From positions 34,241 to 98,240 of the forward strand of contig JBEKGJ010000007.1 in the NCBI GenBank assembly GCA_050012855.1: DNA of 64,000 nt, written 5' to 3'. Position 1 is the stretch's first letter, and every line of letters starts with the position of its first letter. Of the stretch, positions 4,343 to 50,845 are shown in pieces. The translations under genes were made by a program, and so were the position numbers. The stretch comes from Verrucomicrobiota bacterium (GTDB lineage: Bacteria; Verrucomicrobiota; Verrucomicrobiia; Limisphaerales; J093). The notes below the pieces were generated by a model. The model was not told the DNA's origin, did not search any database, and worked only from the letters and a program-made list of their open reading frames with translations.

Positions 4343-4432
4343 AGCTTCGTGGCGGCGTTTTCACCGGCCACGACGTAGTCGGTATTCTTGCTCACCGAGC
4401 TGGTGACGCTGCCGCCGGCGGCGGGGGTGAGC
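4343..4432 (-). pseudogene. ligA: Orphan duplicate of the ligA BRCT-coding segment (distal direct repeat)
   Basis: 90 bp, ~93% identical to 4951..5040 inside intact ligA. It translates in frame as [30 protein letters not shown], against [30 protein letters not shown] in ligA. Similarity is lost beyond both ends. Confidence 0.8.
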
Positions 4433-4484
4433 TCTGGAAACGGCCGACCCTGTCGGCTGCCAAAAGGAAGAGTGAGGGCAATCT

Positions 4485-4838
4485 CTACTTGAAGCCGTGC
4501 GTGAGTCCGTAGGCGAACCGCGCCTTTGTTTCCTTCTCTTGCTTAACCAGCTCAGTCTTCGTTGTGGTGATTCGATTGAGATCGCGCTCGTAGTCGTCCA
4601 TTCGCGCCAGTAATTCACCGAACTGCGGCCATTCCCTTATCTCCGAAAGAGCGGCAGTCTGCTTGGGATCGTATAACATGCCCGTATCGCCTTTGATCAA
4701 CGCGAGCTTGTGTTTACACATCTGCTGGAGAACACCGGCTTGGCAGTGGCAAAACACGCGGACGGAATTCTCGGTGGCCTCAAACTCAACGTCGTAGGAG
4801 CCGCCAGTGCTACTTCTCGCGAGCAGGGTGATTCTCAT
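4485..4838 (-). CDS. SWIM zinc-finger protein with coiled-coil-like C-terminus
   Basis: 117-aa ORF. FCHCQAGVLQQMCKHK matches the SWIM signature CxCx(n)CxH. GC is visibly lower than in neighbouring genes. The ATG lies 3 nt after the ligA stop codon (TGA GCC ATG). Confidence 0.7.
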   Translation of the reverse strand: MRITLLARSSTGGSYDVEFEATENSVRVFCHCQAGVLQQMCKHKLALIKGDTGMLYDPKQTAALSEIREWPQFGELLARMDDYERDLNRITTTKTELVKQEKETKARFAYGLTHGFK

Positions 4839-4841
4839 GGC

Positions 4842-7277
4842 TCAGAACAGTTCGCTTTGTCCGATTGACCTATCGGAACGCTTTGACCCCAGCACTTTCA
4901 AGAACTCATCCTCGCTCAAAATCTTGATCCCGAGTTCACGCGCCTTGTCGAGCTTCGAGCCGGCGTTTTCACCGGCCACGACGTAGTCGGTATTCTTGCT
5001 CACCGAGCTGGTGACGCTGCCACCGGCTGCGCGGATGAGCGCGGCGGCCTCGTCGCGGGAGAGCGTGGGCAGAGTGCCGGTCAGAACGAACGTCTTGCCC
5101 ATCAGCGGACCGGCAGCCGCGCCTCCGCCCATCGTCTGGCCGCTCTCGCCGTGGCCCGGATTGATGCCCAAGGCGCGCAGTTGCTCCAGCACGCGCCGCC
5201 CCGCCGGCGACGCGAAATAGTCGAGCACCGCCGCCGCGACGACCGGTCCGACCTCGGCGAGGCTGGCCGTGGCTCCACTCTTTTCCAGGCGCGCTTCGAG
5301 GGCGGCGATTTCGGCGACGAGGGCGGCGTAACGCTGCTTGCGGGCTTCGAGTTCCGCGACGTCCTTGGGCGGATTTTTGCGGGACCGGGGCGAGATCGCG
5401 GCGCGCTCGGTTTCCTTGTCGCCGAGGTCGCGGATGTCGCGCAAGATTGGCGAGACGGCCAGTTCGTCCAGCGAGGCGTGGACCTGGGCGAGCTGCCAGG
5501 CGGTCTGTTCGCCGACCTCGGGAATGGCCAGCGCGTGCAGCCAGCGGTGCAGCGGCAGCGGGCGGGCGCGCTCCAGCGCCTCGATGACCTTGGTCGCGTT
5601 CTTCTCGCCAAAGACGCGCGGCTCGTCGTCGGTGCCGAGGTTGAGTCGGGCAAGCTGGTCCCGGGTGAGGCCGAAGAGATCGAGCGGTTCGTCCACGAGG
5701 CCGCGTTCGACGAGCTTCTCCGCAACGATGCCGCCGAGGGATTCAAGGTCGAGTGCCTTGCGCTGGGCAAAGTATTCCACGCGCCGGGTTTTCTGCGCCG
5801 GACAAGCGGCCACATTCTGGCAACGCCAGGCGACTTCTTCGGTTTCGGTTGGGACGCCTTGCTGCGTGTCCTGGCCGGGCGGCAGCCCGGCCCTACCGGA
5901 TTTGATCTTGTCCTTCGCAATCGGACCGCCGCACGCCGGACATTGGCCGCCAACATGCGCGACCAGGTCGAAGGGCTTTGCCCCTCTGGGCCGCTTCGCG
6001 AGCACGACTTCGAGGACCTCGGGGATCACCATGCCGGCCTTGCGGATGACCACGGTGTCGCCGATGCGGATGTCTTTGCGGCGGATTTCGTCCTCGTTGT
6101 GGAGCGTGGCGCGAGCAATGGTCGAACCTTGGACGAACACCGGCTCCAGCTCCGCCACGGGGGTCAACACACCGGTGCGACCGACCTGGACGGTGATGTC
6201 CTTGAGGAGCGTCTCCACCGGCGTGATCCACGGAATCGGTTTATGGACGATGGCGTCGCCGGGCGCGCGGGTCTTGGGCGGGATGCGTTGCGCGTCGGCG
6301 AGGCGGTTCACCTTGAGCACGACCCCGTCAATTTCGTAAGGCAACTGCCGGCGCAGGTCGCGCGTCTCGTCGTAGTGCGCGACGACCTTGTCGGCATAGA
6401 CGCGCAAAACGTCCTCGATGTCACGGCAGACCCACCAGCGGCGTTGCGTCGGCAGCCCGAATCGCGCCAGCGCCTCCAGAATCTCCGCGTGCGTCTCCCA
6501 CGCGATGCCTTCGCACTTGCCGACGGCATAGAAGACCGCGCGAATAGGCCGCTGTGCGACCAGTCGCGGATCGAGCTGCTTCAACGTCCCCGCGGTGGCA
6601 TTGCGGGCGTTGGGGAAAGTTTTCTCGCCGGTAGTGGCAAGCCTGGCGTTGAGTTTCTCGAAGTCCCCGGTCGCGATGTACGCCTCGCCTCGCACTTCCA
6701 GCAAGGCCGGCGGGTCCGGTAGATTCAGTTCCAGCGGAATCGCGCGGACTGTGCGGAGATTGGCGGTGATGTCGTCGCCGAACTGGCCGTCGCCGCGCGT
6801 GACACCGAGAGCGAGTTTTCCGTGCCGGTAATGGACGCTGATGGACACGCCGTCCACCTTGGGCTCAAGAACGTATTCGATGCGGTCGCGACCGAGGTGT
6901 TTGCGAATGGTTTTGTCGAATTCGAGCAGGCGCGGCAGGGTGTTCTCGTCCTGCTGCCGGTTGCGCTCTTCGCGATCCGGCTCCTCGGTGCTGTCAGGAT
7001 GTTCGGCCGCCTCGATTTTCTCGAGGGAGAGCATCGGCTGGAGATGCTTCACCCGGTTGAACCCTTCCGTGGGCGCCCCGCCGACGCGCTGCGTGGGCGA
7101 CTCGGGCGTGACGAGTTCCGGAAATTGCTTCTCCAATTCCTGCAGCTCGCCAAACAGCCGGTCGTATTCGAAGTCGCTGATGGTCGGCCGCGCGAGCACG
7201 TAATAGGCGCGGTCGTGCTGGCGGATTTGGTCGGCCAGTCGGGCGTGGCGGGCCTGGGCTTCGGCGCGCATCATCAT
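4842..7277 (-). CDS. ligA: NAD-dependent DNA ligase LigA
   Basis: Inside ORF 4842..7805. The likely start is [27 protein letters not shown] at 7277, overlapping the upstream stop (TGATG). Contains the KxDG adenylation motif (EPKVDGVS), a Cys4 zinc finger (CPACGG...[10 protein letters not shown]), HhH repeats and a C-terminal BRCT domain ([10 protein letters not shown]...[19 protein letters not shown]). Confidence 0.95.
4951..5040 (-). repeat. Proximal copy of the 90-bp ligA direct repeat (within intact ligA)
   Basis: Aligned by eye to 4343..4432, with about 6 mismatches in 90. Confidence 0.8.
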
Positions 7278-50097: not shown

Positions 50098-50493
50098 TTA
50101 GGCCGCCGTGGCCAATTCCCGGCGGGACAAGGTCAGCGGATACGACTGGATGAGGACATCGGCGGAGATTCCCAGGCCGGCGTGCAGGCGCCGGATCATC
50201 GCCATCGTCAGAGCCCGGCGGCGGCCGAGGATGTCGTGAACGATCCGGGCGCTGCCAATATACGGAATCAGATCGCTGGCCGATAAGCCGCGGCTTTCCA
50301 GGTGGTATCGGATCGCCTCCACGGGGTCGGGTGCCGGCATCGGTTCGTGCTCGCTTTCGTAGGCTTCCACCAGCGTGGTGAGCACATCCAATTGATCGCC
50401 AGTCGGCGTGCCGGGCTTGGCGTCGAAGAGACGCTCGATTTGCGCCAGGGCCGCCTGGTGGTCTGCTTCCGTCCGGATGGGGCGAATTTGCAT
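50098..50493 (-). CDS. higA: HigA-family antitoxin (XRE HTH)
   Basis: Start at MQIRPIRTEADHQAALAQIERLFDAKPGTPTGDQLDVLTTLVEAYE, the typical HigA N-terminal region, followed by an HTH segment (ALTMAMIRRLHAGLGISADVLI). Confidence 0.8.
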   Translation of the reverse strand: MQIRPIRTEADHQAALAQIERLFDAKPGTPTGDQLDVLTTLVEAYESEHEPMPAPDPVEAIRYHLESRGLSASDLIPYIGSARIVHDILGRRRALTMAMIRRLHAGLGISADVLIQSYPLTLSRRELATAA

Positions 50494-50510
50494 GGCTCTC
50501 GCCTTTCCTG

Positions 50511-50804
50511 TCAAACCGTCGTCACGTTGATTCGGTCGTAGTCCACATGCGTTCCAACGAACCGCACATACACAATGCCATAGCCGTAATGGATGGCAAC
50601 CACCAGACGGTAGGCGTTGCCCTTGATGTTGAAGACCACCCGGTTGTTGGCCACGACGCTCGCATTGCGGTAAATCCGTTTCAGGTCGGCTGGCGACCGC
50701 CAGTCGGCCCGCTTGGCATCCCGGAACCACGCCAGCAACGGCTGACGGGCATCCGGGTGACGCTCCCAGAATTCCCGGAGAATCCGGCGGGAGATGATGC
50801 GCAT
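50511..50804 (-). CDS. higB: HigB-family mRNA interferase toxin
   Basis: MRIISRRILREFWERHPDARQPLLAWFRDAKRADWRSPADLKRIYRNASVVANNRVVFNIKGNAYRLVVAIHY is the HigB toxin signature. The ATG lies 6 nt after the decarboxylase stop. Confidence 0.85.
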   Translation of the reverse strand: MRIISRRILREFWERHPDARQPLLAWFRDAKRADWRSPADLKRIYRNASVVANNRVVFNIKGNAYRLVVAIHYGYGIVYVRFVGTHVDYDRINVTTV

Positions 50805-50809
50805 CGCCG

Positions 50810-50845
50810 CTCAGGTGTTCACGTGCACCACCTTCGCGGGCGGGA
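50810..50845. repeat. Proximal copy of the 36-bp direct repeat (3' end of the intact decarboxylase gene)
   Basis: Identical to 50045..50080. Confidence 0.9.

Follow-up and report, generated by a model that had tools for sequence, protein, structure and literature searches.

Toxin-antitoxin, restriction-modification and zinc-finger genes directly behind conserved genes of a peat Verrucomicrobium, with gene 3' ends as possible anchors of capture

Results

Repeat pairs and general layout

The window, meaning the whole stretch of 64,000 nucleotides that was analysed, comes from an uncultured peat Verrucomicrobium. Directly behind conserved genes lie four small sets of foreign genes: two toxin-antitoxin pairs, one restriction-modification system and a single small zinc-finger gene. 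Direct-repeat pairs, far beyond chance, were found at all four positions (4/4) given in an earlier note on the sequence:

ligA: 4342-4432 (copy 1) and 4950-5040 (copy 2); 91 nt, 93.4% identity, 61-nt perfect core; spacing 608; within-window BLAST E 9e-33
Flotillin: 23701-23733 and 24428-24460; 28/33 nt, 20-nt perfect core; spacing 727; within-window BLAST E 5e-4
Ornithine decarboxylase (ODC): 50045-50080 and 50810-50845; 36/36; spacing 765; within-window BLAST E 5e-11
Island: 34502-34593 and 40692-40783; 81/92; spacing 6190; within-window BLAST E 3e-26

The first cargo ATG follows the host stop codon by 3 nt at ligA, 17 nt at flotillin and 6 nt at ODC. The common layout of host gene, cargo and duplicate described in the earlier note is real and was also seen in independent assemblies. 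For ligA and ODC, an assembly artefact was ruled out, since over 20 contigs obtained from different samples show the arrangements. The SWIM-like gene and HigB lie exactly 45,966 nt apart in the window, and the same spacing recurs in two independent assemblies. Few comparable repeat pairs occurred in approximately 1.3 Mb of other Verrucomicrobiota and related loci, and these were mostly palindromic intergenic elements; four cases in 64 kb thus represent an enrichment. The divergence of the repeats (7-12%) is the same as that between co-occurring lineages (88-92% identity). No motif of more than 7 nt is common to the four repeats, which makes the trans-acting site-specific recombinase suggested earlier unlikely.

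The cargo, noted earlier as lower in GC, was foreign by composition. Its third-codon-position GC (GC3) was 0.50-0.79 versus 0.83-0.87 for the host genes (SWIM-like gene 0.69, PIN 0.70, HigB 0.78, HigA 0.79, restriction enzyme 0.50, methyltransferase 0.54), and the last 108 nt of ligA (0.64) grouped with the cargo rather than with ligA. In agreement with the original toxin-antitoxin reading, the cargo is of the addiction or defence type (HigBA, a VapC-like pair, type II restriction-modification and the SWIM-like zinc-finger gene). No sigma-70-like promoter or terminator was found between host gene and cargo, which is weak evidence for the proposed lack of a promoter of its own; the cargo may be expressed by read-through from the host gene. 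No integrase or transposase domain was found in 32 window ORFs run through Pfam, a set that leaves out the host genes and several other ORFs. As the earlier note had maintained, there was no attC site, cassette array or intI in the window; the 0-52 nt behind the cargo genes are already accounted for. No tRNA genes were identified in the window, and Rfam gave no match at the gathering threshold.

Flotillin locus

The following features were identified at the flotillin locus:

24409-25977, minus strand: flotillin gene (SPFH/Band 7); homologues carry PF01145 and PF15975
24409-24475, minus strand: foreign-allele flotillin 3' end with the tail DDAGEKP-stop and six markers versus the relative L137 (three-way alignment)
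24428-24460, minus strand: in-gene flotillin repeat copy (repeat alignment)
23906-24382, minus strand: PIN/VapC-family toxin gene, starting 17 nt past the flotillin stop; 70-80%-identical homologues are named VapC family by NCBI
23734-23922, minus strand: small partner, putative antitoxin; native part to about 23734, stop lost, ORF running on to 23656
23670-23733, minus strand: displaced resident flotillin 3' end (RKAMAKDEPPSPEKPGG-stop), then the next gene's native ribosome-binding site; matches the intact L137 flotillin end
23319-23654, minus strand: native downstream gene, 111 aa, which adjoins flotillin at the empty site

The PIN gene had no match in Pfam. Its homology with VapC cassettes of the same family in two other loci (L130 and L133) starts exactly at the ATG, and those cassettes are without flanking repeats. 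The homologues of the antitoxin are 54-75 aa long, and its stop codon was lost exactly at the joint. The direct repeat with its 20-nt perfect core is real, as first reported, but the antitoxin gene end makes up part of it.

L137, a close relative, has the same gene order as the window (aminotransferase, dnaN, NfeD, flotillin) at 92% DNA identity. Its flotillin ends in KDEPAAPEKST-stop with the downstream gene directly next to it, providing the empty site that the earlier note had proposed looking for in relatives. The window remnant at 23726-23655 matches this flotillin end, ribosome-binding site included. The three-way alignment placed the crossover interval at 24476-24523; the window has one mismatch to L137 in the alignment block ending just before it, then six mismatches in the 48 nt from 24475 to 24428, followed by a different tail. 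The in-gene flotillin end is thus another allele, and natural flotillins with similar tails exist (KDDAGEKP in P0195, KDDAGEAK in P0256). The foreign tract starts at a breakpoint approximately 50-95 nt before the tails diverge, and at least 15 nt upstream of the beginning of the remnant.

Another lineage, L138, has a flotillin approximately 88% identical to that of the window and is not syntenic upstream. It is 100% identical over the last 172 nt (24523 to 24352), which span the end of the gene with its tail, the 17-nt gap and the beginning of the PIN gene. This contig comes from the same peat site and ends 57 nt past the flotillin stop; it may be a chimera produced in assembly, although the level of identity changes twice over its length.

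As the remnant matches L137 and the in-gene tail is of the L138-type allele, the repeat copies are two alleles rather than a copied target. A homologous crossover with a separate non-homologous joint would fit the start of the foreign tract better than a crossover inside the repeat. Judged from the alignments, the flotillin cargo appears to have arrived joined to a donor gene end, with homologous crossover at one boundary and non-homologous joining at the opposite one. The earlier suggestion of short-homology capture without an element recombinase comes close to these findings. An empty site or allele markers were found at this one of the four loci.

ligA locus

The ligA locus was comprised of the following features:

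4842-7277, minus strand: ligA, NAD-dependent DNA ligase, 811 aa as called in public assemblies (translation; Pfam domains on the identical gene in L001-L003)
4950-5040, minus strand: in-gene ligA repeat copy, BRCT domain, GC3 0.83 (host-like; repeat alignment and composition)
4842-4949, minus strand: low-GC3 ligA tail, 35 residues, travelling with the zinc-finger gene (GC3 0.64 versus 0.83 for the ligA body)
4485-4838, minus strand: SWIM-like zinc-finger gene, 117 aa, CxC...CxH invariant, starting 3 nt past the ligA stop
4342-4432, minus strand: orphan ligA fragment (repeat); 6 differences from the in-gene copy, 4 of them non-synonymous at conserved residues

The direct repeat of approximately 93% identity was upheld; however, it is not the extreme 3' end of the gene, as had been thought, but falls within the BRCT domain, 108-198 nt ahead of the stop. 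The in-gene copy has approximately 80% DNA identity even to ligA of genomes whose ligase protein is only approximately 65% identical. There was no ligA-like sequence on either flank of the orphan copy, and no old ligase tail after it; an orphan of this kind would need an extra deletion or a different history.

The SWIM-like protein gave an AlphaFold2 model with a pLDDT of 95, with no fold match in the PDB, and its sequence had no match in Pfam or NCBIfam. The ligA and SWIM-like gene pair is present in four lineages including the window, each with the same ligase tail extension; their ligases are 66-72% identical and their SWIM-like proteins 59-71%. Extended tails homologous to that of the window, ending in ELF or ELL, were found in L115, L127 and L135, and the tail and the SWIM-like gene are of low GC3 in all four genomes having the pair. 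In L115, a displaced ordinary ligase tail (AQKLGVKILDEAEFLKPRCG-stop) directly follows the SWIM stop. The similarity ranking of SWIM and tail disagrees with that of the ligA body, with few taxa compared. The reported layout is real, but the locus is not simply an insertion of this genome, since the same pair and tail extension occur in three further lineages. A homologue of the SWIM-like gene (58-59% identical) occurs in L121 as a cassette, within an array of attC-like sites (R'' GCCTAAC, R' GTTAGGC; hairpin fold z = -3.7).

ODC locus

The features at the ODC locus were:

50811-52097, minus strand: ornithine/DAP decarboxylase gene (Pfam Orn_Arg_deC_N and Orn_DAP_Arg_deC on the identical gene)
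50805-50845, minus strand: in-gene ODC repeat copy, covering the last 11 codons, the stop and a few bases beyond; perfect over 50810-50845
50511-50804, minus strand: higB toxin gene, 6 nt past the ODC stop (PF09907 E 7e-32; PADLOC PD-Lambda-2_A E 2e-42)
50098-50493, minus strand: higA-like antitoxin gene, 131 aa, so called in public assemblies (PADLOC PD-Lambda-2_B over the N-terminal 121 residues, E 2e-40)
50040-50080, minus strand: orphan ODC-end copy, perfect over 50045-50080

The repeat agreed in length, identity and spacing with the earlier description. A perfect repeat carries no allele signal and would fit a true duplication equally well.

Restriction-modification island

The island was comprised of:

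34502-34593, plus strand: left repeat, containing the end of a membrane-protein gene (33443-34552), a spacer and the first 32 nt of a DUF2961-like start
34734-34861 and 39443-39570: left and right arms of a 128-nt inverted repeat (89%) around the restriction-modification genes
34994-36223, plus strand: BfiI-like PLD-family type II restriction endonuclease (PF13091, PF18243; PADLOC REase_II; GC3 0.50)
36265-39162, minus strand: DNA methyltransferase with two methyltransferase domains (PF01555 in two stretches; PADLOC MTase_II E 1e-80; GC3 0.54)
40003-40650, plus strand: four-helix-bundle protein gene of the 23S rRNA intervening-sequence protein family, with a suffix domain (PF05635; TIGR04258, TIGR02436)
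40692-40783, plus strand: right repeat, running into the intact DUF2961 gene at 40752-42296 (repeat alignment)

The island had been reported to follow the same principle at a gene junction, and its repeat pair was confirmed there.

Discussion

Proposed origin

With somewhat more confidence than doubt, we favour an origin in which accessory addiction and defence genes from related lineages were acquired by host-mediated recombination anchored in a conserved gene 3' end, without an element-encoded recombinase. The incoming DNA would consist of the donor version of the gene end with the cargo just behind it. On the gene side an ordinary homologous crossover would occur, and on the far side probably a non-homologous joint, a few tens of nucleotides short of the resident stop; alternatively, the whole piece may enter as a circle through a single crossover. 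The host gene would be kept intact and acquire a donor-type tail, while the resident tail would be displaced downstream and then decay, so that the "direct repeat" would be the resemblance of two alleles of one gene end. Conserved gene ends would be good anchors, and the same cassette could therefore enter diverged genomes. We infer the same origin for the other three loci.

Alternative explanations

A true insertion with long target duplication (Nobusato, Kobayashi) would have copied a resident target of tens of bases to both sides, possibly via widely staggered breaks that were filled in, and the copies would then have drifted. We consider this unlikely, although the layout matches that in PMC2853133 (repeats above 30 bp, inserts below 20 kb, mobility genes absent, only one copy where the site is empty, and cases overlapping gene 3' ends), the ODC repeat is perfect, the island holds a restriction-modification system, the original cargo type, and the differences in the ligA orphan (4 non-synonymous, 2 synonymous) resemble neutral decay. 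At flotillin, however, the copies represent distinct alleles whose tails differ, the in-gene copy beginning at a recombination breakpoint; what follows the in-gene ligA copy is compositionally foreign; and a drift of 7-12% is hard to reconcile with perfect cores of 20-61 nt. We would give similarly little credence to four unrelated events that look alike since selection tolerates insertions solely behind intact genes, with ligA-SWIM as an old vertical pair and the 91-nt fragment incidental. The rarity of such pairs elsewhere speaks against this, as do the same cargo class, orientation and compositional break at all four loci, the displaced tail in L115, which shows ligA ends being replaced, and the discordant similarity rankings, though from few taxa. 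The occurrence of the ligA-SWIM pair in four diverged lineages, the lack of homology around the ligA orphan and the inner structure of the island, unlike the small cassettes, are consistent with it.

Less likely still is an origin from integrative elements driven by an integrase, or from small att-flanked elements that were mobilised in trans, with gene-end mimics in their att sites and only addictive genes left. Integrative elements commonly target and restore gene 3' ends, leaving imperfect direct repeats, toxin-antitoxin and restriction-modification genes resist loss, and the 92-nt island repeat is compatible with an attL/attR pair. However, the window ORFs tested contain no integrase or transposase domain, and the four repeats have no common core, so that four different integrases would be needed; in addition, the cargo boundaries are gene boundaries within 0-20 nt on both sides, and the homologous breakpoint at which the foreign flotillin tract ends is not within the repeat. 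We regard as very improbable that integron cassettes were put outside the integron by the integron integrase at secondary genomic sites. There is a report of cassettes inserting at non-classical genomic sites (bioRxiv 10.1101/2022.09.11.507474); the cargo is small, has tight boundaries and apparently lacks promoters, and the L121 homologue is a cassette. Yet no cargo gene has an attC or space for one behind it, the window holds no intI or array, and this route yields no host-gene-end duplicates; for the present state of the loci it is already contradicted.

Comparison with known systems

The loci illustrate a neat route of gene gain that is largely already described. The earlier note knew of no described mechanism; however, the pattern has been named "insertion with long target duplication" (Nobusato et al. 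2000, Gene 259:99; Furuta, Abe & Kobayashi 2010, PMC2853133), with restriction-modification inserts between direct repeats of 30-400 bp, some overlapping gene 3' ends. Shared with the present loci are foreign addiction-type genes of deviant GC between such repeats, without mobility genes, and a repeat that is single at the empty site and sometimes lies over a gene 3' end; the island, with restriction-modification genes and inner long inverted repeats, has a form found in PMC2853133. That system was described for restriction-modification, whereas toxin-antitoxin pairs and a zinc-finger gene are also present here, and at flotillin, the only locus resolved, the "duplication" consists of donor and resident alleles.

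Single-crossover capture of a circle with one homology gave anchor duplications of 109-950 bp by experiment (PMC3240628). One-sided homologous integration corresponds to homology-facilitated illegitimate recombination (de Vries & Wackernagel 2002; Prudhomme 2002; Meier & Wackernagel 2003), as summarised in PMC6382021. Both share with our reading one homologous anchor and no element-encoded enzyme. They were laboratory events in other bacteria, whereas here the process is proposed from natural sequence and in every case a conserved gene provides its 3' end as the anchor.

Integron gene cassettes are similar in their small, tightly bounded, apparently promoterless cargo of toxin-antitoxin or unknown function, with a genuine SWIM-like cassette in L121, but the present units have no attC, integrase or array and are flanked by host-gene duplicates. 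Integrase-mediated islands at the 3' ends of genes or tRNAs, together with derivatives that lack the integrase (cis-mobilisable elements), likewise supply a replacement gene end and leave imperfect flanking direct repeats; in contrast, the loci here have no integrase (in the ORFs tested) and no common core site, the elements measure just 0.6-0.8 kb, and the repeat does not contain the breakpoint.

In the C-terminal displacement of Rhs and CdiA polymorphic toxin loci, the resident end gives way to incoming DNA that brings part of the conserved gene, a new end and a small linked gene; the old end stays downstream as a still usable orphan module, and the new end is a functional toxin. The replacement of a resident end by an incoming end with a linked gene, leaving an orphan downstream, is common to both; here, however, housekeeping genes serve as hosts, their altered tail looks incidental, and what remains as the orphan is short and dead.

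Repeat pairs and their setting

Foreign cargo lies between direct repeats at four loci: ligA (followed by a gene for a SWIM-like zinc-finger protein), flotillin (a PIN/VapC-like gene and a small partner), ornithine decarboxylase (ODC; higB-higA) and a 6.1-kb island (restriction-modification genes). All four repeat pairs were present where the earlier note had placed them, and its distances from the host stop codon to the first cargo gene (3 nt at ligA, 17 nt at flotillin and 6 nt at ODC) were reproduced. The cargo had also been described as lower in GC, and this held, with a GC content at third codon positions (GC3) of 0.50-0.79 in all cargo genes versus 0.83-0.87 in the host genes.

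Direct-repeat pairs at the four loci (window coordinates)
4342-4432 and 4950-5040: ligA repeat pair, 91 nt, 93% identical
23701-23733 and 24428-24460: flotillin repeat pair, 28 of 33 nt identical, 20-nt perfect core
34502-34593 and 40692-40783: island repeat pair, 81 of 92 nt identical
50045-50080 and 50810-50845: ODC repeat pair, 36 of 36 nt identical

The arrangement was seen on more than 20 contigs from different samples, and between the zinc-finger gene and higB, a stretch that takes in the flotillin and island insertions, the window and two independent assemblies agreed to the nucleotide (45,966 nt). The arrangement is thus real and not an assembly artefact, which the earlier note had named as a ground for refutation. 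Proteins identical to those of the window were present on long peat-metagenome contigs, and the named homologues of window proteins were labelled Verrucomicrobiota or Limisphaerales. With regard to presence/absence polymorphism in the source population, the cassettes were present at every place returned by exact-protein look-ups. With an 874-aa neighbour gene as query in species-representative genomes and a 797-aa one in metagenome contigs, only relatives of 44-68% identity came up, and their gene order was not conserved; no syntenic relatives were found for ligA, ODC and the island, so that the empty-site comparison covers the flotillin locus.

Four cases per 64 kb compare with very few in approximately 1.3 Mb of other loci, where the repeat pairs were mostly palindromic intergenic elements rather than gene-end duplicates. 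Three other Verrucomicrobiota contigs (L008, L009 and L087) carry dispersed palindromic intergenic repeats of 46-87 nt, for example L087 12087-12153 and 18238-18304; these are hairpin elements that surface as direct-repeat pairs. Two related metagenome contigs (L090 18282-18896 and L096 11335-11954) each have one small ORF between direct repeats of 49-56 nt (82-88% identity), immediately upstream of an anti-sigma-antagonist-like gene. These units may represent the same kind of event, but on the 5' side of the gene. A protein-level search for further gene-end remnants in the window gave the known ones and two tandem paralogue pairs only.

No integrase or transposase domain was identified among the 32 window ORFs run through Pfam, a subset of the ORFs in the window. 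There was no tRNA gene in the window, and no tRNA target, no match to Rfam, and no motif longer than 7 nt common to all four repeats. Neither a sigma-70-like promoter nor a terminator was found between host gene and cargo; the absence of a sigma-70 match proves nothing in this phylum, and the result would be compatible with read-through expression.

A further low-GC stretch (13200-15450, GC 0.57-0.60) contains small minus-strand ORFs of no assigned function, the first of which begins 9 nt past the stop codon of an AcrB-type pump gene (15450-18560); a family 2 glycosyltransferase gene is next. No flanking repeat or gene-end remnant was found around this stretch.

The flotillin locus

Flotillin is 85-91% identical across the phylum, with variation in the final few residues. 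One related contig (L137), in which the upstream genes follow the window order and the DNA is 92% identical, represents the empty site. Its flotillin ends in ALRKAMAKDEPAAPEKST and the stop codon, followed 18 nt on by the gene that is found downstream of the cassette in the window. The empty-site check that the earlier note had proposed was thus positive at this locus: the junction is uninterrupted, and L137 4397-4429 matches both repeat copies.

The window sequence beyond the cargo (23726-23655), comprising RKAMAKDEPPSPEKPGG with its stop codon, a ribosome-binding site and the start of the next gene, is the same gene end as that of the L137 flotillin, while the intact flotillin of the window ends in KDDAGEKP. 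Window and L137 flotillin genes are nearly identical down to 24476, then differ at six sites within 48 nt until the tails diverge. A second contig (L138), from a lineage with a different upstream neighbourhood and a flotillin approximately 88% identical to that of the window, shares a stretch of 172 nt with the window at 100% identity, running from 24523 across the tail and the 17-nt gap into the start of the PIN gene. The window flotillin is therefore an allele mosaic, L137-type to 24476 and foreign-type (the same as L138) from 24475 via the tail into the cargo.

As read from these alignments, the in-gene repeat copy is part of a foreign flotillin allele that arrived with the cassette, and the orphan copy beyond the cargo is the resident allele. 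The left junction is a homologous crossover somewhere in 24476-24523, and the right junction would be a non-homologous joint at the extreme end of the antitoxin gene, which has lost its stop codon. As the foreign tract begins at least 15 nt upstream of the beginning of the orphan copy, a homologous event on one side plus an illegitimate joint apart from it fits better than a crossover within the repeat. The far joint lies within approximately 15 nt around 23726-23740, where the antitoxin tails are too variable for the donor sequence to be reconstructed. Contig L138 stops 57 nt past the stop codon and comes from the same peat site, and could thus be a chimeric assembly; the empty-site and allele arguments stand independently of it.

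Homology-facilitated illegitimate recombination joins its other side at 3-10 nt of microhomology. A candidate for this at the far joint, a resemblance between the antitoxin end RRKA of another VapC cassette (L130) and LRKAMAK of flotillin, was set aside as unproven, as antitoxin tails are variable and the native part of the window tail extends further. No flanking repeats were found at the other VapC cassettes (L130 and L133). Two neighbouring ORFs of the window that overlap in part (22206-22964 and 22780-23433) resemble each other at their C-termini (E ~1e-6) and look like tandem paralogues, one with a zinc-ribbon motif.

The ligA locus and the SWIM-like gene

The ligA locus differs from the flotillin case and is older. 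Homologues of the SWIM-like gene are only 46-64% identical; in three loci with unrelated flanking genes (L115, L127 and L135) the homologue lies 3 nt past the ligA stop codon or overlaps it. The ligases of the window and of these three loci (4/4) share a C-terminal extension of approximately 15-20 residues, the last three being ELF or ELL. In the window ligA, GC3 is 0.64 over the final 108 nt (4842-4949), and in all four genomes the GC3 of tail and zinc-finger gene is below that of the ligase body. These features hint that the tail and the SWIM-like gene belong together as a unit, which might be functional. Ranked by similarity, gene and tail disagree with the ligase body, on four taxa only, and the link to ligA may reflect either horizontal spread or inheritance.

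What remains of the displaced gene end varies. In L115, an ordinary short ligase tail (AQKLGVKILDEAEFLKPRCG and stop) lies displaced directly past the stop codon of the zinc-finger gene. In L127, a 182-aa ORF (5357-5905) overlaps the SWIM-like stop codon and resembles the zinc-finger and helix-hairpin-helix part of a DNA ligase, without a BRCT domain; it is only 25-30% identical to any ligase compared, so it is not a recent remnant, and could be either a ligase fragment displaced long ago or an independent gene. The leftover in the window is a 91-nt BRCT fragment, with no homology above shuffled controls extending beside it on either flank. Four of its six differences alter conserved residues, as a dead copy would show. 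Its counterpart is the most conserved DNA in the 3' region of ligA, approximately 80% identical even between distant genomes and thus a plausible crossover site. An apparent 99-nt deletion in the ligA of L118 proved to be a scaffold gap of Ns. The sole sigma-70-like promoter match in 3400-5400 (4222-4251, minus strand; GTGACG, 18-nt spacer, TATACT) lies next to the orphan ligA fragment on its downstream side, within approximately 490 nt that hold no convincing gene.

Outside ligA, a SWIM-like homologue of 58-59% identity (L121-L126) occupies one cassette among arrayed attC-like sites (L121 338-2289). The repeats are 113 nt long, start with GCCTAAC, end with GTTAGGC and fold as hairpins. They are spaced 423-943 bp apart, with a single small ORF per unit, and have the look of an integron cassette array or attC cluster; no integrase was visible in the L121 stretch examined. 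Another homologue is located elsewhere (L134). Together, these homologues place the SWIM-like gene in a mobile pool, and its link to ligA is recurrent.

Cargo genes

The SWIM-like protein (117 aa) has an invariant CxC...CxH motif and a confidently predicted structure, and the model gave no PDB fold match with E <1. At the ODC locus, HigB has a clear Pfam match (PF09907, E 7e-32), and the order of a HigB/RelE-fold toxin followed by a small antitoxin is that of a type II toxin-antitoxin system (HigBA). HigB and HigA also match the PADLOC models PD-Lambda-2_A and the N-terminus of PD-Lambda-2_B (E ~1e-40). Within 50098-50804, protein A of this phage-defence system is matched in full and protein B over the first 121 of 402 positions only; the pair may be a cut-down relative of PD-Lambda-2 and not a plain toxin-antitoxin.

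The PIN gene had no Pfam or NCBIfam match. Its homologues in many bacteria are 70-80% identical, belong to a very large family named VapC at NCBI, and always have an overlapping partner of 54-75 aa. On the island are genes for a BfiI-like restriction enzyme, a double methyltransferase and a four-helix-bundle protein. Scans of viral contigs with the methyltransferase and HigA yielded distant matches or nothing.

Origin of the insertions

Host-mediated acquisition from related lineages, anchored by homology and displacing the resident gene end, is the best-supported account. It is demonstrated at the flotillin locus and would apply to the other three by analogy. It accounts for cargo that sits directly past an intact gene and within tight boundaries, for tails of donor type and for the missing recombinase or common site, as well as for the 7-12% repeat divergence, which equals that of co-occurring lineages. 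It leaves unexplained how the cargo was first placed behind the host gene in the donor, and why the ligA orphan lacks the old tail.

At the ODC and island loci, the repeats may instead be true target duplications. The ODC repeat is perfect, stop codon included, and is thus uninformative as to alleles. In the island, the repeat lies across a gene junction, and its copies show 11 differences in 92 positions, evenly spread. Inside the island, a 128-nt inverted repeat (89%; 34734-34861 and 39443-39570) brackets the restriction-modification genes, with no clear short target duplication beside it and no extra copy in the window or the other loci compared. We consider it rather unlikely that the loci represent distinct, self-perpetuating, integrase-less "homing cassettes", in which small defence or addiction genes are permanently tied to a replacement 3' end of a highly conserved housekeeping gene, which host RecA would use for their integration. 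Such cassettes would pass between diverged genomes, always at this gene, and swap cargo with the integron cassette pool. If so, ligA with the SWIM-like gene would be a long-established, widespread case (ELF-ending extension, four lineages) that might alter ligase function.

Under homology-anchored acquisition, toxin-antitoxin, restriction-modification and small accessory genes can enter natural uncultured soil bacteria without mobile-element machinery: the cargo rides on a conserved housekeeping-gene end and host recombination does the work. Some "long target duplications" may be donor and resident alleles, which would alter both their dating and the mechanism sought. For annotation, orphan gene-end fragments beside small foreign genes are markers of such events. 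New here are the extension of the pattern to toxin-antitoxin and other small genes, the evidence that a "duplication" can be two alleles, the density of four per 64 kb, and the recurrent link of ligA with a zinc-finger gene and an extended ligase tail.

Comparison with known systems

The earlier note had found no attC site, array or integrase. This agrees with the distance from cargo stop to repeat copy, which is only 0-52 nt and lacks a RYYYAAC...GTTRRRY pair, with the occurrence of single units only, and with the lack of a recombinase domain in the window ORFs tested. The window loci thus differ from integron cassettes, and from the L121 homologue with its attC-like sites. A site-specific integrative or cis-mobilisable element is unlikely, with no integrase in the ORFs tested, a longest common repeat motif of 7 nt and no tRNA target. 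A diversity-generating retroelement was rejected: the six ligA differences (T/A, G/C, G/A, G/T, G/C and G/A) are not adenine-specific, and no reverse transcriptase was found. At Rhs and CdiA loci, a resident gene end is displaced by an incoming end with a linked small gene, and the present loci resemble these.

The closest named class is insertion with long target duplication, named for restriction-modification systems, in which some repeats overlap gene 3' ends and for which a cycle of entry, amplification and release was proposed (Furuta et al. 2010, PMC2853133). That class has direct repeats >30 bp, an insert <20 kb and no mobility genes. The repeats here are 91, 36-41 and 92 nt, with flotillin borderline at 28-33 nt, and no mobility genes were found in the ORFs tested. 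The repeat is a single sequence in a related genome at the flotillin locus only, in L137. At this locus the two copies do not derive from one resident target, as the in-gene copy is foreign with a different tail and the remnant is resident-type. Restriction and modification cargo is confined to the island (BfiI-like endonuclease and double methyltransferase), where the inverted repeat is a form also described by Furuta et al. (PMC2853133); in the three small cassettes the cargo consists of toxin-antitoxin or zinc-finger genes instead.

Single crossovers in E. coli give duplications of 109-950 bp of a single homologous anchor (PMC3240628), and in transformable bacteria integration by homology on one side is an established process (PMC6382021). 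The shared layout and lower-GC cargo read from the sequence at the outset stand, while the suggestion of an undescribed mechanism does not, both layout and routes having been published (PMC2853133, PMC3240628, PMC6382021). The flotillin allele mosaic displays the one-sided crossover of homology-facilitated illegitimate recombination.
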